From Octopus vulgaris (Eukaryota), in contig OX597832.1 of the NCBI GenBank assembly GCA_951406725.2, positions 13,578,001-13,642,000 on the forward strand: 64,000 bases of DNA, in the 5' to 3' direction. The translations under genes and the position numbers were made by a program. The notes under the pieces are model-generated. The model saw only the letters and a list, made by a program, of their open reading frames with translations. It made no database searches and was not told the origin of the DNA. Positions 8,746 to 63,657 of the stretch are shown here, piece by piece. Numbering within the stretch: position 1 is the first letter of the stretch; each line of letters starts with the position of its first letter.

Positions 8746-9560
8746 TCCAGGATGGTTATAGTCTAATGACTGAAACATGTGATATATATATATATATATA
8801 TTGCGTATATACATTATTTTACAAATAGTGTGTTAAAACAGATTTTCTTATAAAACGTGGTGGTCATTTCTTGCGCTGGCAAAATATACCCGCGCACTAC
8901 ATATCTGTTCTACATTTCAGGCTTATTCTTGTTCTTATTTGATGCCTTTTCTCCAGAACTCTTTCGTCATGCATCCAGCGACCTCTTCAGCAACTCTCCA
9001 TCCCATGTGTTCCCTGTTCTGTTTATCCCATTCTGTTTTTCTGTGGTCTGTATCCTAATATGCTCATCCGTTTGAGCCTGTATCTCTGTGTGAGTGTGCG
9101 TGCGTTTACTATGTATGTTTTGTGTGCGTATAGGTTTGCTTACAATACTCTTTGTATGTGTTCCCGATATTTATTTTTTTCAAAATTTATTTACTTTCCT
9201 ATCTATTTCACCCATTTTGCCTTAGATATGTGTATGTTGTGTTTTTGTATATATTATACTCTTTCTATCAAATACAAACGGTATAGCAAGCAAACCTATA
9301 TATACACTCAGAACACATAGAAACGCATACACTCACACGCACACACACACACACACACACACGCACACACTCATACACACGCACATACGCGTTCGCACAT
9401 ACTCAGAGTAAAACGCATGCGTAGATAAGGATAAATACCATAGAAAGACAGAATGGATTAAGCAGAAAAGGAAGAGTCACGTATGTTGGGGTGAGGAGGT
9501 CACTGCTTTAACTTTTACAGTGTGTTTCTTTTTCGGATAAATGATTCACTGATCCACTAA

Positions 9561-22584: not shown

Positions 22585-24503
22585 TTCGATATAAATGAAT
22601 AAAATATTTATTCCCGATTTTGAATTATATTTATGTACCATTGTTATTCAGATGAACAATGTGCTAGTATGTAGAAGTTTGTCATTTCATTGACCAATGT
22701 TTCTCTCTGATAGTGTTCAATGTACTTCAATTCCCTGTAAATATAGAGTTCATTAGAGTATTCTTCATAGGCACTCGTGATATTGTTTCCATCAACTTCA
22801 GATATTCTTAGTATCCTCTATTTCAAAAATAATCAGCATTGAGGGCTTTTGGTAAGGTTTTATCCGAAGGATATTAAGTAGCTACAAAATTATACTTGGG
22901 CACTTGCTAAAGGCTTATAGGAATGGGTTAAATAAGGAGACTTACTCAGTACTGATGTTCAGCAAGCTGGTGTTCGTTTTGTATTACTGATATTGAAGTT
23001 TCCGACTGGCTCCTCCAGCTCTTAGCAAAATTTCGACTGCCATTTTAAAAAATAAAATGTACCCCTATGTAACTCAAACTACATTTCAGCTTTTGCAGTT
23101 TTGGTGCGAAAAGTAGAGAAATTAATCGATGGTTATATTCCTCAAATATCACGTCCTGACCAGCATCTGTAGTTTACACATTGTGTTTGCGTTGTAATCA
23201 ATGTCTTTTTGCAGCTGCATACTATAACTTGCTTCTAGTTTAGAATTACAAAACTCTCTATCACAACATATAATGTAAGCTTTGAGTTACAGTGTAGAGG
23301 AGAATAGATCTATGGTTGTGTGTTTACAGACACCACTTCCCCTGGAGGTAAGTTTCATTATGATAATCAAATCTTGGTGGTAGAGTCCAAAATCAGTGCA
23401 TGATAATAGATAATTTGGAAAGCATTGGCTGAGGTTAATTTTGTCATTTTAAAATAATGAATTCGGTATTTTAAAATGACAGCAAAAAGTATTGAGAAGT
23501 ATTATGTTAGTTCTGTATAAAGGAGAGAAGAAATACAAAAACAAATATGAAAACATCTTGTAAAAGCAAGATGCTTTAGTAATAGGAACACAGTCACTCT
23601 CTCAAATATAGACGGACATACATACACATATATTCATAAACAAAAAGTGTATTTAATGCATGTTGTAGAATATATTTATCGCTAAGAAGTTATTGATTCA
23701 CGCCGTCTCTAAATGATTTTCACTCATTGTGAACCTTTCGCGACATTCTATTGTTATATATGACATAATCAGATTATTCCATTTCAGTTATCATATAATA
23801 TATGTCTCCTCACATCAAAGATAACCTTGTGCCTCAATCATATTTCGTGTTGAAAATATGGATTATTTATTATTATATCATTTCCATACAGACTGCACAC
23901 ATTTGTTTCATCTCCTACTTCAAAAATGAAGGCAGTAATCAATTTGAATATCTCAACAGACCGAATCTATAGAATTGAATGTTTGAATAATTAGCCGACT
24001 GCTTTGAATTTTCAAAGCTTATCATATACATTGCATTCTCTCCCTACTAACAAATCCATTACTGTTCGCATTGCTAGAAATAGTAGACTGATCTCCCTCA
24101 AGTCATATGTTATTATCCATCTGACGGCAAGATAAATAATGTGACAATTATTCTAATTATATAATCTATGAAGAAAGATATTCAAGGCAGTAAAATAGTC
24201 ACGGCTAGGAGATCTCTGTATGAATGTCCCCATAGCGTTAAGGAGAAAAAATTATTGTTCAATGTCGCTACACATTATGTCAAATATAATCTCTAGCTCA
24301 ATCAATACAGGAAAGATAATGATATTCTGATAAAGATTCGTTTGTAAGACTAGCTAGAAGTAATATTTGCTTTATAATCGGAAATAATTTATATGATAAA
24401 GTAAGAGAAATGATCCTCTAGCAAATGGACACCGATGTTTCCATAGTATATTTAAATAAGACTGACTGCTATTTTCAGAAATAGGAATATACCGTATATG
24501 AAT

Positions 24504-25284: not shown

Positions 25285-25620
25285 TTACTTGTTTCAGTCA
25301 TTGGACTGCGTCCATCGTACGACAGTACATTCAAAGGTTTTCGCCGAACAAGACTCCACGAGAACGAAAATAAACTGGTACTGGTTACGTAACCTTCATA
25401 CAGGATAGACACAAATACAAACATACACTGATACATACACATACGTACGTACGTATGTATGTGTGTATGTGTCTGTATGTTTGAATATACGATGGACTTC
25501 TTTCAATTTCAATCTACTAAGTCCACTCGCACGGCTCTGTGTTTTCTATAGTAGAAAACACTTTCCTAATCTGAACCGAAGACAATATTCTTGGGAAGCA
25601 AACTTATTACGATTATAGAA
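25285..25620 (-). mobile_element. Old degenerate SINE family A
   Basis: TACTTGTTTCAGTCATT tail and CTTCTTTCAATTTC..CTACTAAGTCCACTC core in reverse. Confidence 0.5.
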
Positions 25621-35589: not shown

Positions 35590-35770
35590 TAGTGAAGATA
35601 GATTTTTCATAATTTTTTGTGGGGTGTAGTTGGTAATTTTTTCATAATGTTGGTTGTCATCAAGCAAGGAAATTACAAGATTTCTATAGTATGATGTATC
35701 CATTATTACAACTGCATTTCCCTTGTCTGCTTCCTTAATGGTTATATCTTCATCATTTTGAAGTTCTATC
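35590..35770 (-). mobile_element. Inverted 5' segment of the Penelope-like element
   Basis: ORF 35446..35775(-) encodes ELQNDEDITIKEADKGNAVVIMD (PLE DKG motif)...TNYTPQKIMKNLSSL, the region just upstream of and overlapping the plus-strand part. Confidence 0.9.
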
Positions 35771-37738
35771 ACCAACTACACCCCACGAAAAAATTATGAA
35801 AAATATATCTTCACTAATTAAAACTCATGAAAAGGAACTAACAACCAAAGAGATTGACTTTCTAACAAACTTTAAATGCAAACCTAGCCTCTTCTATGGT
35901 CTGCCAAAAATTCATAAAAGCCAAATTATAAATGAAACCATTAAAAAATCACCAAAGACATACATACACACACCTAACCCGGGGGACCTAAAATTACGAC
36001 CCATTGTAGCTGGCCCAACCTGTGAAACACAGACTAAGTCTATTTATGGACATCCTCCTGAAACCCTTCCTTAAACATATCGATAGCCATATCAGATATG
36101 ACTTAGACATGTTAAACCACCTTCCAAAAAAAGCCAAGGAAGAAACAATCATGGTTTCATTTGATGTAGTTAACTTATATACCAGTATACCTCATAATTA
36201 TGGACTAGATGCAATACAGTTCTGGCTGGACCAATTTCCGGAAGAAATACCAAAAAGGGTCAGTAAAGAATTCATTACTAAATCAATTGAATTCATCCTA
36301 CATAATAACCACTTCATGTTTGACAATACATTTTACCGTCAAAAATCCGGAATTGCTATGGGTACAAGGGCAGCACCAGTCATTGCGAACCTAACAATGG
36401 GCTACCTGGAAATAATCATTTACCAGGAATCTTTATCAATCTTTGGAAAACCCCTCTCTCAATACATAAAAGAGAATTGGAAACGATTCCTGGACGATTG
36501 TTTTATACTCTGGAATGAAAACACAGATAAACTCCAAAAATTTAAAAACCTAGTGAACAGCATAAACCCAAATATACAGTTCACAATGGAATACAACAAA
36601 AAGGAACTCCCATTCTTGGATATGCTAATTAAAAATATTAACCTTTAAATAGAAACAGACATTTTTTACAAAGCCACAGACGCCAAACAATATCTTCTTT
36701 TTGATTCATGCCACCCAAGACACACTAAAACAAACATCCCCTTCAACCTTGCAAGAAGGATATGCACAATAGTGTCAGAACAAAATACCAGGAACTTTAG
36801 ACTGCAAGAACTGAAAAACACCCTAATTGACAGACATTACTCAGCTCAACTCATAGAGGATGGGATCAGACGTGCAACAGATATCAACATAGAAACTTTA
36901 AGAAAAGTTCAACACAACAACACACCTTCCCCGAAAATACTACTTTACATATCCACATACAACCCCAGAAACAAAGAAGCCTTCACCATCATTACCCAGA
37001 ATTTACCAATACTTCATAAGGACCCCAAATTAACGGAAATTCTAAACCTACACCAAATCATTAAAAGCTACAAACAACCTAAATCACCGAAAAAGATTCT
37101 CACAAAGGCAAAAAAGATTCTCACAAAGACAGAAATTCAAGATCAAATCTAAGTTTACTTGTGCCTCTGAAAACATAATTTATGTCATAAAATGCTCGGG
37201 CTGCCACCAAGACTACGTGGGATCCACGGGACTATCACTCAGACGTAGATGCACACTGCATCGACAACAGATTGCATTCCTAGAATACAGAATGATACCC
37301 TTTAGTGAGCACATTGAGAAATGCGCAAAGCAACTACTACCACAATTTTTAATATTTCCATTTTACTAATGTGCTATCGGAACACCAACACAAATTAGAC
37401 TATACAAGGAAACATTCTTCATTGAAAAGTACAAGCCCAGACTTAACCATCATACTTATACAGAGAAATTCACTCCAAAGGAAAGATAAAAAAATTTAAG
37501 CGATTATCTCCCTTACACCGGAAGAAATCACTTATTACCTCCCCTTATTTGGAACTCTTCTCAACGTAAACATAACGATGTAAGAAATTTGAAAAGCTGA
37601 ACGCGAAACCGGTCATTTCTTCTAAACTATGTCATTGTATGAAAAAAATTGATAACATTCTTCAGACATAATGACTCAAATATATATTTTTTAACCTTTT
37701 AAAACAAGCCTTCTGTAGTTTTTTCACTTTCTACTATT

Positions 37739-39736: not shown

Positions 39737-42411
39737 ATTTAAACAAAAACTAATGATTCATTGTAAACATTGCCTCTAAATGCGACATAATGTAATGGAA
39801 GTCATAAATTGAGTACGTAAATACCAATATATATATATAGGATTGTTTCTCTATATTGTCCATCGCCGTGACCGTTGTGGTCGTTATTCATATTAATATT
39901 CCTAGGTACTAAATTTTATCAGTTATTATCATTATTATCATTATACATAGCAGGATGTTTAACAGCATTGCTTCTGACTCTAGATGTGAGTTGTAATGCA
40001 AATGCGGTCAAATTTTGACTTTCATCTTTTCAGGATAGATAAAATATGCCCCAGTCATTTACTTCTTTCAATGCAATTTGTTAGTCCTTTCCCTAACATT
40101 TCAGGCCATGTGCCTAGTGTTAAAAGAAGAACCAGAACTTACGGTTTATCCCTCCCAGCAGCGTTATCATAATCCTCATGCACTTAACATTTTTTAATAA
40201 TTTTCCTACAAAGTTTGACCAAGCCCCTCAGCGCGTACATTTAGAATAAAATTATACGTTTCAATATATGATAATAATTTGCTGATACAATATTTTAGAC
40301 ATGGGGTTAGAATTTTCATGCATTTTTACTCGCACATTGACACACACGCACACATACACGATTGTTGCCGCAAATATATCCCACGAAATAGTAATATTCT
40401 AATTCTTTTCTTATTTTGGAGCAATTTTGAGGAGTGGAGAAATCGATTACATTCACCCTTATACACAGCTGGTTCCTATTTTAGTTGTTGCTGTTTGCTC
40501 CTTCTGAAGCCATGCCTGGCTCATAAGGGCCGGTTTCCCGGTTTCTTGGCGTATAGGTTCCCCACCAGGACGGGACGCCGGTCCATCGCCGGTGAGCTGC
40601 AAGATACAGGAGGAAAGAGTGAGGGAAAGAGTTAGCAGAAGTTCGCTATTACCTTCTGCCGAGCCGCGTGGAGCTTAGGTGTTTCGCTCATAAACACACA
40701 CATCATCCGGTCTGAGATTCGAACCCGCGATCCCCCCACTGCGAGTCCGCTGCTCTAACCACTAGGCCATGTGCCTCCACAGGATGTTTCCTATCTTAAC
40801 AATCCCGAAAGGATTTATGGCAAAACTGAACTTGGAGTATTACGAAGGTAAAGATGGACGAAATACGATCAATGACTTTCTCCGGCGTGCTAACAGACAT
40901 ACCATTTCTACATATTGAAATATGCATTTAACGTCTTCAGGAGGACATCTCTTTATGATGCACCTTGACTATATTATTGATACATGGAAGTGAACAGTTC
41001 AATCCAAAGTAACAAATTTTCAATGAACACAAGGCACTTTTGATTTCAAGACAAACTTTCATGTAATCAATCTTTTTATCCAACGATGATTGAAGTTTGC
41101 ATTGTAATTACATTTATATATTTATATGTAATATGATATAATATAACATAATTAGCCAGTCAGTAATGGAATATACTAACATGTTGACATTAGACTATAT
41201 GAAATACCTCTATTACAATCGCTTGTAATTAATGTCTTAAATTTCAAAAGAAAACCAAAATATTGACTAGTGTATCTGAAAATGAACTAGAAATTACTTT
41301 GCACTCAATGAGAGCCATTACGAGATTAAACCAAGAATTATGCATTGCCGGAGAAACAATCAAGTTATCAAATTTGCCACTTGATATTAATGTTTTTTCT
41401 CGTGAATTTATAGGGGTCACTCATTTGTTTGCATTGATTATTAAGAAATCTGCAAAAAAATATTAATAGAAAGGAAATAAGCTCTTATTGCGATTATGAT
41501 CTCATTTGTAAAAAAAAAATATTTTTAGAGGAAACAATATAGTATGAAAATACATTTCTATTTGAAACTCTATAATAGGTTATCTATAAAACTTTATGCT
41601 AATCTTAAAATCACAAACTTTTATGCAATATTAAACGCGAAAATTTCCCTATACTACATCCTCCCTGAGAAGAATAAAATAAGTAAACAGGAAAACGAAG
41701 CAGCTAACTGCTATTAAAAAATATCGGAAATGTAGTTAAAATTTACTCTGCCGATTAAGAAGTCTTTCACGACAGTTAAATGTACTACAATGACTACCTA
41801 AACAAACCATTTAGAATATGAATGTATACGATATCTTCCAAAACACTAATCAATAAGTATAATATGAGACACAGTAAGTATAGAATTAGAATTAGCTAGT
41901 AGGTGCTTTCCTTAAAATGATTTTAGAAATAAAACTTCTGACGCCCAGCAACTTTTACGGAAATAATCTATAACAAAAAATACAATATTTCTTCTGAAAA
42001 CCCATTTAAAATATTACATTTTTATATTTGGTTTTCAAGATTCATTGTGTGAATTCGTATGTTGAAGCAAATTACGTTGCGTCTGAGGGGTGTCATATTG
42101 TCTTCAGGCCTATTATCTAAGGTATTCACCGGTTCGATTTCCACGCATTTATTATTTATATTTTTCAACCTTGTCAGAGGACGTTAAGAGTTGAAAATCA
42201 TGCTCTCCTTTGTTTTAAATTTTTCTCCTTCCCGCCTGGTACCTAGGACTATTAATATGATAAACGACCACAACGGTCACGGCGATGGACAATATAGAGA
42301 AACAATTCTATATATATATATTGGTGTTTATGTACACAATTTATGACTTCCATTACTTTACGTCGCATTTAGAGGCAATGTTTACAATGAATCATTAGTT
42401 TTTGTTTAAAT
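39737..42411. repeat. ~173-bp inverted repeat pair (39737-39909 / 42239-42411)
   Basis: TTGTCCATCGCCGTGACCGTTGTGGTCGTT and its flanks recur reverse-complemented 2.3 kb away with few mismatches. Confidence 0.9.
40495..40781 (-). mobile_element. SINE family C nested in an old family B copy (about 40420-40895)
   Basis: Minus head GTGGAGGCACATGGCCTAGTGGTTAGAGC..GGGTTCGAATC; tail shared with 9807-10071. Host B sequence resumes at ~40790. Confidence 0.8.
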
Positions 42412-43640: not shown

Positions 43641-44373
43641 TACTACACATTTGCATAACGCCTACCTCGGTACACTCACCACACCCGCACAATTACATAC
43701 CAATACACACTATTCAGTTCATCACTCATTTCACACACCATTACACACAAACGTACCACATCTTTCCACACATCCCCACTCCATACAGACTAGCATCGAC
43801 CACTTTCCACCAGACACACCACACACCATTATCTACAAGTCCACAAGCAATCTTCAATAGCGTCACCACAAATACCAATACGTAGAGCAGCCACACACAC
43901 TGTTTCACGGCCGTTTTCGCTTGTTTCGAAACGAAAGAACATAAGGATAAGCGTTTCCTTCAAACATTCATTTCTTATCTCAAACAATACTCTGACTGAA
44001 GATAGTCAATCCAAAAGTAGATTCAGTTTACCAATAAATGATCGCAATGAACAACTCTGAGTCCAGGAAAATGGAGCTATTCAGTTAAAACGTATAGCTG
44101 TGTGTAAGTGTGGACGCGCGCACATGTGTGTTTATAAGACAAGGTTCAAATAATGAGTATTACATATACCTATATTGTAGTAAACTCGAATTTATATACA
44201 TGTGTGGCTCCAAATTGCTGCAAGTAACACACTGCTTTTGGTACTCGCTCCCATACAAAGTAAAACGACAGTATTCTCGAAAGTGAGAAACGATGGATCT
44301 ATTTTAAACAAAACACCTAACTAAATGTATCTTACACGTTCGAAGGACAATGGGGATAACAAAATATATTATT

Positions 44374-45755
44374 TTCTATTCTTGGCACAAGGTCCAACAT
44401 TTTTGTAGAGGAGGCCTGTCGATTAGATCAATCCCAGTACGCGTCTGATACTTAATCTATCGACCACGAAAGAATGAAAGGCAAAGTCAATCTCGGCGGA
44501 ATTTGAACTCAGAACGCAAAGACAGACGAAATACCTGTTTCTTTATTACCCACAAGGGGCTAAACATAGAGGGGACAAACAAAGACAGACAAATGAATTA
44601 AGTCGATTACATCGACCCCAATGTGTAACTGGTACTTAATTTATCGACCCTGAAAGGATTAAAGACAAAGTCAACCTCGGCGGAATTTGAACTCAGAACA
44701 TAGCGGCAGACGAAATACCGCTAAGCCATTCGCCCGGCGTGCTAACGTGTCTTATTTCTTTATTGCCCACAAGAGGCTAAACACAGAGGGGGAAAACATG
44801 GACAGGCAAAGTAAATAAGTCGATTACATCGCCCCCAGTGCCTAACTGGTACTTAATTTATCGACTCCGAAAGGATGAAAGGCAAAGTCGACCTCGGCGG
44901 AATTTGAACTCAGAATGTAGCGGCAGATGAAATACCTGTTTCTTTACTACCTACAGTGATCTAAACACAGAGGACACTAACAAGGACAGAAAAATGGATT
45001 AAGTCGATAATATCGACCCCAGTGCGTAACTGGTACTTAATTTATCGACCCCGAAAGGATGAAAGGCAAAGTCGACCTCGGCGGAATTTGAACTCAGAAC
45101 GCAAAGACAGACGAAATACCTGTTTCTTTATTATCCACAAGGGGCTAAACATAGAGGGGACAAACAAGGACAGACAAATGAATTAAGTCGATTACATCGA
45201 CCCCAATGTGTAACTGATACTTAATTTATCGACCCCGAAAGGATGGAAGACAAAGTCAACCTCGGCGGGATTTGAACTCAGAACATAGCGGCAGACGAAA
45301 TACCGCTAAGCCATTCGCCCGGCGTGCTAACGTGTCTTATTTCTTTATTGCCCACAAGAGGCTAAACACAGAGGGGGAAAACATGGACAGGCAAAGTAAA
45401 TAAGTCGATTACATCGCCCCCAGTCCCTAACTGGTACTTAATTTATCGACTCCGAAAAGGATGAAAGGCACAGTCGACCTCGGCGGAATTTGAACACAGA
45501 ATGTAGCGGCAGATGAAATACCTATTTCTTTACTACCCACAAGGATCTAAACACAGAGGACACTAACAAGGACAGACAGTTGGATTAAGTCGATAATATC
45601 GACCCCAGTGCGTAACTGGTACTTAATTTATCGACCCCGAAAGGATGAAAGGCAAAGTCCTCCTCGGCGGAATTTGAACTCGGAACGTAACGGCAGACGA
45701 AATACCGCTAAGAATTTCGCCCGGCGTGCTAACGTCTCTGCCAGCTCACCGCCTT
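44374..45755 (-). repeat. Head-to-tail concatemer of seven SINE family B units with a duplicated trimer
   Basis: Units start ~44374, 44536, 44749, 44937, 45121, 45333, 45523. Diagnostic variants recur at a 585-bp period. Only the last unit has the full tRNA head. Confidence 0.92.
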
Positions 45756-45913
45756 GATAAAGCAAGATATCAAATATAATATCTCACCAAAGAACAAGAG
45801 ATGCAAGGATATGCAGAAACAATTGTAATGACTTTTTAAAATAAAGACTGCATTTCAATCCATTTTATAGCATACATATATAAATACATACATACACATA
45901 CATATACATATAT

Positions 45914-46079
45914 TTATACGATATAGTGCATATTTATACACATAAGGAATCCACTTAGTGTGGGATTCAACACATTAGAGAGAACATCTAGCTTCTATAA
46001 CCTAGATGTTCTCTCTAATGTGTTGAATCTCACATTAAGTGGATTCCTCATGTGTATAAATATGCACTATATCGTATAA
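45914..46079. repeat. Hairpin, 78-bp arms, 10-nt loop
   Basis: 45914-45991 is the reverse complement of 46002-46079 with 3 mismatches by hand count. Confidence 0.95.
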
Positions 46080-46198
46080 CTAATATACAGTCTTCTTGAC
46101 TAATTTTTTTGCACGTTAGACCACTGGAAATGTAAATTTTGATTGAATATTTTAAATTTAATTAAATTCCATTTCCCTTTGATATGATTATACATATA

Positions 46199-54309: not shown

Positions 54310-55556
54310 TCAGGGCAACCCATAAGTTCTGTCAGAATTTTGAATAAGGTCGGGATAATAAAGTGGATGAGGAATTTTTTCCCAACCAAGCCCTTCGACC
54401 TTCTGTGATGTGATCTTTGCAGTGTGGGGTCGCGTATTTTCCTGATGAAACATCATGCCTTTTCGACTCACTAAAGCGGGCTTCTGTTCTTCAAAGCTTG
54501 GTTCAAACTTCCTAATTGCTGACAGTAGACTTGAGCATTGATCGCTGTTTTAGGTGGTAATAATTCAAAATGAATCACTCCTTTGCAATCCCGTCAAATA
54601 GGGAGAAGAAACTTTTTTCCTATGAAGTTCCCTTCTCGGTTGCTTTTTCCCTTTTACCAAGCAACTCTTTATTACCTTTAACATTTCAATAGAAGATCAG
54701 TTTTTCATCACCAGTCACAAGTTTTAAAAAATGGTTTAAATGAGTTCGCGAAAATGGAGAGAAGAACAGATGTCAACTCGGGATTTGCGGTTACTTTCGG
54801 ACAATTCATGAGGCACCCAGCTTCGAAGTTTAGGAACGTTTCCAAGTTGTTGAAGATGACGATGAACAGTTGTATGGATTGAACTAAGCTTTCTTGCCAA
54901 TTCTTCAACTGATAATGCAGGATTTTCTTCAAGTAATGCCTCAAGGAGCTTCTCCTCAAACTCAACACGGCATCCTGTTCGATCTTAAACTTCAAGGCTG
55001 AAATCTCCATTTCTTAATTTTGCAAAACATCTCCTGCAAGTTCTTTCATTCAAGCATTCTTTCTCATTAACTGGATGTATGATTCGAGTTGCTTCGGCAG
55101 CAGAGTTTCCTTTTTTGGTACTCTTAAAGCATTATGTGTCTGAAATAGACTTTGGATACTTCCATGTTGGAAAATGTTTTAATCAACGAAATTTTAATTC
55201 TATTGTTCTGTAAAATAATATGTAATTTCAGTTCTATATTTAAGAGATAAGGAATTATGTACATTATTTACATTATTTACTTACGACGGATATTTGTCCT
55301 CGGCTTGTTTCGAAATTTCTCCAAGACACCTGACGTAGGCAGGATGGTATATCAGCCGAAACGTTGTGTTAAGAACAAACAAGATGAGGACAAATATCCG
55401 TCGAATGTAAATAATATAAATAATGTAAAATATGTAATTAGTTTAAATGTACACAAATGCTTAAAAATAATTTTTTATTCCATTAGACATTCTAAAATCC
55501 TATTTCTTTCAATTTTTAAAAAGGTAAAATCGGACAGAATTTATGGGGTGACCTGA
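54310..55556 (-). mobile_element. Mariner element with both TIRs and a dead transposase
   Basis: TIRs TCAGGGCAACCCATAAGTTCTGTC and GACAGAATTTATGGGGTGACCTGA, TA on the left. Minus encodes GNSAAEATR, WVPHELS, VTGDEK and FHQENTRPHTA. Confidence 0.9.
55228..55428. mobile_element. Family H fold-back element containing a minimal hammerhead-like motif (55325-55370, +), inserted in the mariner
   Basis: Arms ~55258-55310 and 55377-55427 are inverted. GACAC-CTGACGT-A-GGC...GCC-GAAA-CGTT-GTGTT. 11-bp TSD AATATGTAATT at 55217-55227 and 55429-55439. Confidence 0.8.
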
Positions 55557-57674: not shown

Positions 57675-57780
57675 ATTAACAATTAAGGAACGGCCATAAT
57701 AGGCCATTCACCCACTAGAAGCTTTGGCTGTTATTTCTAGTGGGTGAATGGCCTATTATGGCCGTTCCTTAATTGTTAAT
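57675..57780. repeat. Perfect hairpin, 46-bp arms, 14-nt loop, abutting (TA)n
   Basis: 57675-57720 is the exact reverse complement of 57735-57780. Confidence 0.97.
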
Positions 57781-60171: not shown

Positions 60172-60380
60172 AATCTTGGCACAAGGTCTTCAAAATTAAG
60201 GGACAAGGGGCTAGTCGATTACATCGACCACAGTGCATAACTGGTACTTATTTCGTCGACCCCGAAAGGATGAAAGGCGAAGTCGACCTCGGCAGAATTT
60301 GAGCTCAGAACGTAGCGGCAGACGAAATAGCTCTAAGCATTTATCCCGGCCTGCTAACAAATCTGCTAGCTCGCCGCCTT
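60172..60380 (-). mobile_element. SINE family B
   Basis: Core GTCGACCCCGAAAGGATGAAAGGCGAAGTCGACCTCGG and head end GCTCGCCGCCTT. Confidence 0.85.
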
Positions 60381-60495
60381 AATATAAATAAATATATATC
60401 AATATCAGTATACATGCGTGTTTACTATCTGTCTGCCATTCTATCTATTTATCTATCTATCCATCTCTCTCTCACTCTCTCCCTCTATATATATA

Positions 60496-60982
60496 TATGT
60501 AAGTACGTCTATCTATACCTCACAAATTATGCGCATCTGTGTCTTTGTCTATATCTGATTCTATAATTTTAGTACGCATGCACGCGCGTCTCTGTGTATG
60601 TCTGCGTAAATATACTTTAATATCAGTCTCGCAATACGTAGCGTTTATAAGATTGATAAAGATATGACAATGCTATACGTTAATCTAAGTCAGATTTATT
60701 TATATACGCATCTACCAATCATAAACATGGATGAAAAATATTCACCAAGAAGCAGTATGAGCTCAACATAGAATTTCTAATGTGATAATCCGTATCAGAC
60801 TCCAGTTTATGAAATCTAAATATATCATGTGCTACGTCAGCAATTTTCAATTGCGGGAAGGGAGTTAAAATAATGCATATAAAATTCTTTAGCGTCAGCA
60901 AGTTGTTATATCATCGATACGATATCATTTAATTCCTAGAGGTCGAGAGGAAAGTGATATGGTGGATAAGCGCATATATACA

Positions 60983-61030
<48 letters not shown>

Positions 61031-61530
61031 TGTATATATGCGCTTATCCACCATATCACTTTCCTCTCGACCTCTAGGAATTAAATGATATCGTATCGTT
61101 GATATAACAACTTGCTGACGTTAAAGAATTTTATATGAATGATTTTAACTCCCTTCCGCAATTGAAAATTGCTGACGTAGCACATGATACATTTAGATTT
61201 CATAAACTGGAGTCTGATACGAATTACCACATTAGAAATTCTACATAGAGATCATACTGTTTCTTGGTAACTATTTATCTTCCATGTTTATGATTGGTAG
61301 ATGTGTATATAAATAAATCTGTCTTAGTTTAACGTATAGCATTGTCATATCTTTATCAATCTTATAAACGCTACGTATTGCAAAACAGATGTAAATGTAT
61401 ACTTACACAGACAGACACAGAGGCGCGCGTGCATGTGTACTAAAATATACACGGAAAACGTAGACTCAGATATATAGAAAGACACAGATGCACATACGTA
61501 GTGAAGTATAGACAGACGTACGTACACATA
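60496..61530. repeat. ~1-kb palindrome centred on (AT)21
   Basis: Perfect palindrome 60915-61098 (71-bp arms + 42-nt AT centre at 60986-61027). Arms continue ~500 bp each with rising divergence. Confidence 0.97.
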
Positions 61531-61800
61531 GTGAATTTGAAAAAAGAAAAGTGTTTAAAATGCATACGAAGACAATGTAGTGATTTCCACTAATATAATA
61601 AAGTTCATACCTGGCTCATTCATCAAAAGGTGTGAAATGTCTCTTATGATTTATAGATGTTTAAAAGAGTAAAAGACTGTCTTGAGGTAAAACCTACATA
61701 TGTATATGTGTGAGTATTCGTGTTGATTGTGCGTGTGTGTGTGCGCATGCATATATATATGCATGCAGATGTATATGTCTGTATTTTTGCGTGTATAGGC

Positions 61801-63352: not shown

Positions 63353-63657
63353 ATATAAATATATAGTAAGGGCAAACAAGTACGTATACAAGTGCCTTAC
63401 ATGCTAGAAGAAGATGCCAAAGTAAAAAAGCTACCTAAATTATCAACATGAAATAACACGCGCTGTACTCGTGCAAATAAACGAAACAGAATCATAAAAC
63501 GAACCATTTCATGAATCTGATTCGTTTACTTGCACGAGTACGGCGCGTGTTATTTTATAATGATATGTTAGGTACGTAGTCTTTTGATATTGGCGTCTTC
63601 TTATAGCATGTAGGCGACTTGTATACGTACTCGCTTACCCTTGATATATATTTATAT
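63353..63657. repeat. Diverged hairpin, ~145-bp arms
   Basis: AAATAACACGCGCTGTACTCGTGCAAATAAACGAA pairs with TTCGTTTACTTGCACGAGTACGGCGCGTGTTATTT; AGTACGTATACAAGT pairs with ACTTGTATACGTACT. Both ends are TA-rich. Confidence 0.9.

Follow-up and report, generated by a model that had tools for sequence, protein, structure and literature searches.

Towards the end of the window, by which we mean the whole 64 000-nucleotide stretch of Octopus vulgaris DNA that was analysed, AT-rich and microsatellite-rich animal DNA with transposon remains encloses a palindrome of about 1 kb. Its parts, together with two features at its left side, are listed here by position; no strand is assigned to any of them.

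60202..60383, no strand: dispersed repeat in the left flank, outside the palindrome, which we take to be SINE-like, with more than 10 further copies in the window
60486..60498, no strand: short TA run, (TA)6T, at the left arm's outer edge
60496..60985, no strand: left arm, non-coding, whose sole other copy within the window is the right arm
60669..60689, no strand: putative donor, in the left arm, of the copied tract (mirror of 61343 and 61323)
60786..61226, no strand: inner, probably younger stratum, approximately 220 bp per side, defined by contig comparison and by the divergence step
60915..61098, no strand: perfect palindrome of 184 bp, including the TA run
60986..61027, no strand: (AT)21, the spacerless centre of the window allele
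61028..61530, no strand: right arm, longer than the left by 12 nt, near 61447–61460
61323..61343, no strand: putative tract in the right arm copied from left to right (smallest extent; it could lie anywhere within 61305–61381)

The palindrome turns after position 61006, with a perfect core of 92 + 92 bp, and the description given in an earlier note made from the sequence alone (a spacerless 1 kb palindrome around (AT)21 with 184 bp perfect at the centre) is confirmed in the window sequence. The arms end at approximately 60494/60496 on the left and 61526/61530 on the right, and the flanking DNA past both limits is unrelated. Arm-to-arm identity is approximately 89–90% by BLAST and 92% in ungapped columns. 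The arms have an ordinary composition (33% GC, 67% AT), and no copy of them was found elsewhere in the 64 kb window besides the opposite arm, which supports the description of them as ordinary, non-repetitive host DNA. The arm reading frames are filled with stops, and protein-coding genes were not found in the arms, the three frames scanned against Pfam yielding no match; a short open frame is disrupted differently in each arm and matches no family. A search of the entire window with Rfam at gathering thresholds returned no matches, and neither a hammerhead-type motif (pattern search) nor reverse-transcriptase remains (Pfam) were found in the arms. Across 209 of the 219 stop-to-stop frames of at least 55 aa in the window, Pfam recognized only a reverse transcriptase (36010–36645) and a helix-turn-helix domain (54739–54984). 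The strand is predicted to fold into one long hairpin of −464 kcal/mol as DNA, as expected of any such palindrome. The locus is a real inverted duplication of approximately 490 bp of single-copy, non-coding DNA.

The two arms differ by 40 substitutions in 489 ungapped columns outside the TA run, with 19 transitions and 21 transversions. Five of the differences are of CpG type, and in all five the CG is retained on the left arm and lost on the right. Four indel events separate the arms: one, of 1 nt, lies 149 positions from the centre and the other three at 440 or more, so that the indels reported previously at the edges are mostly, though not exclusively, found there. Such a spectrum, with transitions and CpG-type changes but few indels, suggests divergence of biological origin. 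CpG observed/expected is approximately 1.4 in the arms and 0.9 in the window as a whole. Divergence rises with distance from the centre (permutation p = 4.4 × 10−4), and the identity gradient noticed earlier is significant. A step fits the data as well as a smooth slope: the best single change point falls 215 bp from the centre, with 5 differences in 194 columns inside it and 35 in 295 outside (permutation p = 0.003), and there is no further trend in the outer arm part beyond it (p = 0.44). AIC values of 266.0 for a two-step model, 267.3 for a step, 269.9 for a logistic slope and 278.9 for uniform divergence do not clearly separate step from slope, while the uniform model is beaten. Given the low inner rate of 5/194, the perfect core has no separate significance (p = 0.16).

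To place the locus in a comparative setting, we turned to short-read contigs from other sequencing runs. Among the 24 rows listed, 14 runs from seven studies and under four organism labels contained part of the region. The comparison covers runs X1 (organism A), X4 (B), X7 (C) and X8 (D), and thus not X2, X3, X5, X6 or the small-share runs X9–X14. The reference for placement was the right arm plus its flank at 80% likeness, so contigs from both arms map there and are given below in right-arm coordinates. None of the contigs spans the whole stretch, run X1 was covered to approximately 80%, and all counts refer to the displayed rows, beyond which lie 33 variant rows, 14 pieces and 12 loose ends. 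Left-type contigs are present in X1, X4, X7 and X8 and are continuous with the window's left flank in X4 and X7, while two X1 records (5 and 6) show no differences from the window over 61352–61589 and extend into the right flank. X4 and X7 are alike in having a single inner contig (61040–61226) that branches at 61227, 221 bp from the centre. The branches, over 61197–61383, are one left-type and one right-type contig with comparable depths (48.9/56.9 in X4 and 7.4/9.4 in X7) that meet in a shared node at 61360–61390 of approximately double depth (100 and 16), and the left-type outer contig is again at single depth (53.7 and 4.8). Equal-depth arm contigs with a double-depth shared node are the mark of two paralogous arms rather than two alleles. 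At an identity of at least 80%, only these two arm types were seen in X1, X4 and X7, the remaining listed matches being pieces of 35–40 nt. Organism D contributed only a left-type outer arm (61337–61530) at low depth, which is not readable as a single-arm ancestor; likewise, the right outer arm and right flank have no contig cover in B, C and D, which we do not take as absence. A metagenome match to a 20-mer of the arm was discarded as chance, since the contig has 48% GC and no further likeness.

Both arm types are thus found in A, B and C, with the left type joined to the left flank. The arms are real paralogues that predate the A/B/C splits, the outer arms being older than those splits, and the suggestion of an old fold-back duplication holds good in the sense of an old local inverted duplication. 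The whole feature could in principle be a chimeric read or a mis-join of two haplotypes, as no listed piece spans the stretch. For the arms this is refuted by their presence under three organism labels, by the joining of the left type to the left flank (X4, X7) and of the right type to the right flank (X1), by the unrelated flanks and by the biological look of the arm differences; we regard it as next to impossible overall, and the doubt about a chimeric read expressed in the earlier note is borne out.

The comparison also revealed two strata. Of the arm differences in the window, counted where displayed contigs allow, none of the six in the inner part also differs between the arms of B and C, while eight of the 12 in the outer part do (Fisher p = 0.013). 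The B/C branch point at 61227 coincides with the window's own change point, and the divergence step is common to three organism labels. The outer differences are thus for the most part older than the splits and the inner ones younger. On the simplest reading, the inner 220 bp or so was likely re-copied from one arm around or after the time of the common ancestor. Divergence is 12% between the outer arms and approximately 5% between orthologous arms over 61197–61383. Since lone differences may be merged during contig assembly, finding only one inner contig in B and C is no proof of identical arms; divergence between their inner arms may lie below the between-species level, although single differences may be masked in the contigs. 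The depth of the inner contig (36.7 in X4, 5.97 in X7) is below that of even one arm, which would need under-sequencing of the fold-back as its explanation. Under-representation of a palindrome centre in short reads is described for PATRR8 in the accessible part of that report (PMC4255720).

Evidence for copying between the arms comes from a short segment of the right arm. At 61323 and 61338, the window arms both carry C and A, respectively, where the arms of B and C both carry G and C. Four further changes, at 61331, at 61333, at a 2-nt insertion after 61341 and at 61343, distinguish the right arm from the left in B and C, whereas the two window arms are identical there. Seven of the nine differences between the right arms of B/C and the window fall within 22 nt (p = 1.8 × 10−4), and the chance of two parallel changes is roughly 6 × 10−5 to 1 × 10−2. 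Run X1 holds two right-arm versions, one window-like and one (record 4) that shares the B/C state in each of the six changes, and the two extend in the direction of the right flank. No reciprocal product of the 61323–61343 tract is present in the window, which indicates copying and not a flip. All six changes would follow from two left-arm mutations and a single subsequent left-to-right copy spanning 61323–61343 or more. Against a clean single event, differences between the window arms persist at 61322 and, within the putative tract, at 61328, and these would call for patchy repair or a mutation at a later date. The window-type states present in X1 argue against a polishing error at the tract unless X1 was the sample used for the assembly; several other arm sites distinguish X1 from the window, and it probably comes from a different individual. 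The states shared at 61382, a CpG site, and at 61282 are weak candidates for further copying events. Arm-to-arm copying is supported by these observations. It had been proposed to continue near the centre; the clearest tract lies 317–337 bp out, so copying is not restricted to the centre.

The centre itself is where the runs and the window disagree. The TA-centred junction was not found in X1, X4, X7 or X8, and 61018–61039 is uncovered by the contigs of all four. X4 and X7 match the window from 61040 outward, so that 61040–61052 is real, and share a junction at 61040. Inward of it, the X7 contig has 45 letters unlike the window, and the X4 record, 230 long with 188 matched, has 42 unmatched letters. 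In X1 the junction is at 61053, preceded by 19 non-window letters (the contig spans 61053–61098 at a depth of approximately 25, as estimated from depth bins). This 19-letter extension ends in a self-complementary 8-mer, a candidate alternative spacerless centre where the contig stops early. The window contains no above-chance match to motifs taken from the loose inward ends of X7 and X1. The centre thus seems to differ among lineages, with the full centres lying outside contig cover, and a TA run could still sit further inside the centres of X1, X4 and X7. What A, B and C all retain is the short TA stretch at the left arm's outer edge, which opens the left flank in X4 and X7. Polymorphic palindrome centres are known in people, as the accessible parts of reports on human X palindromes (PMC8327919) and PATRRs (PMC4255720) describe. 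In the octopus, the TA-centred junction may be a recent rebuild in the window haplotype, an ancestral state hidden behind insertions, or an assembly turn-around.

Two rival readings concern this centre, and we consider both unlikely, to much the same degree. In one, the arms are real while the spacerless (AT)21 centre is a product of assembly or polishing, through a turn-round in the TA run, a collapsed spacer or homogenized inner arms. The lack of any contig over 61018–61039 in four runs, three of which diverge inward, favours this, as does the departure of X1 from the window at 61053 after exact agreement over 61352–61589. Yet the window sequence is reproduced in X4 and X7 from 61040 outward, TA-rich contigs may have been filtered out, X1, with its several other arm-site differences, is likely another individual, and the human palindromes just cited have polymorphic centres. 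The window is also free of N and includes resolved TA runs as long as approximately 48 units, as would be typical of a long-read assembly. The other reading, put forward in the earlier note, is that a cruciform at the central (AT)n gave rise to the duplication by folding back, making the TA centre ancestral. (AT)21 stands exactly in the middle of the perfect core in the window, and in the accessible text of the respective reports AT/TA repeats form cruciforms (PMC12972899) and short inverted repeats can seed palindromes via fold-back (PMC7999016). Against this stand the B/C junction at 61040 with at least 42–45 other letters inward, the X1 junction at 61053, the fact that only one of the 44 TA runs of at least 10 units in the window has long non-microsatellite arms (43 have none) and the lack of a TA centre in all five other aligned fold-backs of the window. 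With X1, X4 and X7 continuing inward in sequence unlike the window centre, the proposed TA-cruciform origin is unsupported.

Other readings would give the palindrome an identity of its own. It could be a palindromic transposon of the MITE or fold-back type, or a retroelement's 5′ end in inverted orientation; the window offers counterparts to both, namely short fold-back elements and the retroelement at 35590–37366, whose 5′ part is inverted. TA is found at both outer ends, as a target duplication would be; the dinucleotide is, however, its own complement, and on the left it forms part of a TA run. The ends of transposons are usually most alike at the outside. The gradient of the palindrome runs the opposite way, with identity highest inside; there is no copy elsewhere in the window, no match to Pfam (three arm frames), Rfam or a hammerhead pattern, and X1, X4 and X7 offer no third arm type at 80% identity or above. 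We consider a transposon very unlikely. On this evidence the arms are no young MITE family, the search at 80% identity or above leaving room for older ones. About as improbable is a hairpin-RNA locus with pairing under selection, as a source of siRNA or a substrate for editing. It would suit the single long predicted hairpin, and the octopus is rich in potential near-perfect dsRNA and in hyper-editing, according to the accessible part of one study (PMC5625713). DNA copying explains the mirrored changes without selection, though; the centre differs between runs, and no host-gene domain appeared in the 209 of 219 open frames scanned.

The best explanation, to which we assign a probability of roughly 0.72, is an inverted duplication shared by three organism labels, whose arms are likely being overwritten one from the other in patches, whose inner 220 bp was likely re-copied later than the outer arms and whose centre has likely been replaced more than once. 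A local inverted duplication would have come first, followed by upkeep through repeated one-way copying. During replication or gap repair, a new strand would fold back or switch strand, one arm would serve as the template for the other, and return would occur through the homology of the arms. Long events starting from the hairpin tip would yield a renewed centre and the inner stratum, and short events would yield patches such as 61323–61343. We favour polymerase template switching over recombinational gene conversion only slightly (approx. 60 : 40), both having an identical outcome in the sequence. The copying and the strata rest on the data, while the enzymes involved and the succession of events at the centre are our reconstruction. 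Neutral turnover is the default, and no function is implied. Homogenization of inverted-repeat arms by template switching is documented in the accessible text of several reports (PMC5453318, PMC8604942, PMC8794818); the tracts given there are mostly tens of bases, compared with a stratum of 220 bp here, which counts against this explanation.

The locus belongs to a known class, that of inverted repeats homogenized by template switching or gene conversion. The published systems are compared here as the accessible portions of the reports describe them. Quasi-palindrome correction by short-range template switching (the Ripley and four-point models; PMC5453318, PMC8604942, PMC8794818) likewise involves an imperfect inverted repeat with little or no spacer, a property that the window allele shares, and clustered changes that match one arm to the other through mirrored substitutions, as at 61323–61343. 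The examples given have arms or tracts of approximately 7–60 bp, whereas the octopus arms are 490 bp, the stratum 220 bp and the tract some 320 bp from the tip. Sex-chromosome palindromes (PMC8327919; 10.1101/800185) also show non-reciprocal arm copying, conservation across species and, as seems to be the case here, an unstable, polymorphic centre, but they exceed 10 kb, are >99% identical and bear genes, compared with 1 kb, approximately 92% and no gene found. PATRR8 (PMC4255720) is similarly sub-kilobase and near-spacerless; its alleles differ at the centre and its centre is under-represented in short reads, as may also hold for the octopus locus. It differs in being 97–99% AT with arm identity of 93–100%, while the octopus arms are ordinary DNA of 67% AT. 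Palindromic MITEs and fold-back elements, such as a frog Harbinger repeat (PMC5625713), likewise fold on themselves beside TA, whereas the palindrome has no dispersed family at 80% identity or above and is most alike inside. Our literature search, which covered few subscription papers, brought up neither a description of this locus nor one of stratified, TA-centred palindromes in cephalopods.

Long palindromes with almost no spacer are commonly regarded as short-lived. The octopus palindrome is older than several organism splits, and it carries age strata, a copied tract in one of the two X1 versions and probably different centres. Its importance is modest for a lone non-coding locus with no demonstrated function, although it offers a compact natural record of arm homogenization on a scale between short template switches and the giant palindromes of sex chromosomes. 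If such loci were common in the lineage, the lengths and direction of copied tracts could be measured genome-wide and their share of dsRNA tested.

With microsatellites masked, the window contains 10 candidates for closely spaced inverted repeats, the focal palindrome included, and five of the others were aligned, of which one is the inverted 5′ end of the reverse-transcriptase element and one has a second partial copy at 1674–1781. Among the four fold-backs unlinked to a retroelement or dispersed repeat (again with the focal one), three have an outer end within 3 nt of a TA run, against a background of approximately 9% per element. The post hoc p-value is 0.003, becoming 0.012 when counted as 3/6 and 0.054 as 3/10 candidates. 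One could imagine that the lineage makes and renews fold-back palindromes from ordinary DNA genome-wide, that TA at the outer edge acts as a stop or return point, that copying at the tip leaves strata and that the products supply dsRNA for editing. We rate this as a long shot; the proximity of TA to outer edges and the step at approximately 220 bp common to three organism labels are leads only. If true, much of the near-perfect dsRNA underlying the very high A-to-I editing reported in the octopus would stem from self-renewing palindromes and not from inverted transposon pairs alone, in an animal with unusually many potential near-perfect dsRNA loci and much hyper-editing in the accessible account (PMC5625713).

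Several other repeats in the window deserve description. A fold-back of 305 bp at 63353–63657 has arms approximately 80% alike, a tiny loop and its right end against a TA run, and is present in a single copy within the window. Another, of 172 bp (45911–46082), has arms of approximately 81 bp with four mismatches, a short loop and its left end against a TACA-type microsatellite, while a third, of 106 bp (57675–57780), has perfect 46-bp arms, a 14-nt spacer and its right end against a TA run. The fold-back at 55260–55427, with 50-bp arms, contains by eye a core that we take to be hammerhead-like; it has no Rfam match, and a second partial copy lies near 1674–1781. An inverted pair of 173 bp (39737–39909 and 42239–42411), 94.8% alike and 2.3 kb apart with no coding match between, is possibly a non-autonomous transposon or an inverted duplication.

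The reverse transcriptase noted above (RVT_1, E = 2.5 × 10−8) belongs to a broken retroelement at 35590–37366, presumably of the Penelope family, with a GIY-YIG-like motif recognized by eye at approximately 37046–37366. Its 5′ part, from 35590 to approximately 35770, is inverted and approximately 47 bp is duplicated, in a manner resembling twin priming. The helix-turn-helix frame at 54739–54984 lies on the minus strand (Pfam HTH, best E = 1.2 × 10−5) and reads as a transposase fragment, presumably of mariner type. Approximately six same-strand copies of a SINE-like repeat are spaced some 180–220 bp apart at 44362–45759, and three further, weak candidates for closely spaced inverted repeats lie at 23442–23481, 25415–25486 and 9088–9338.
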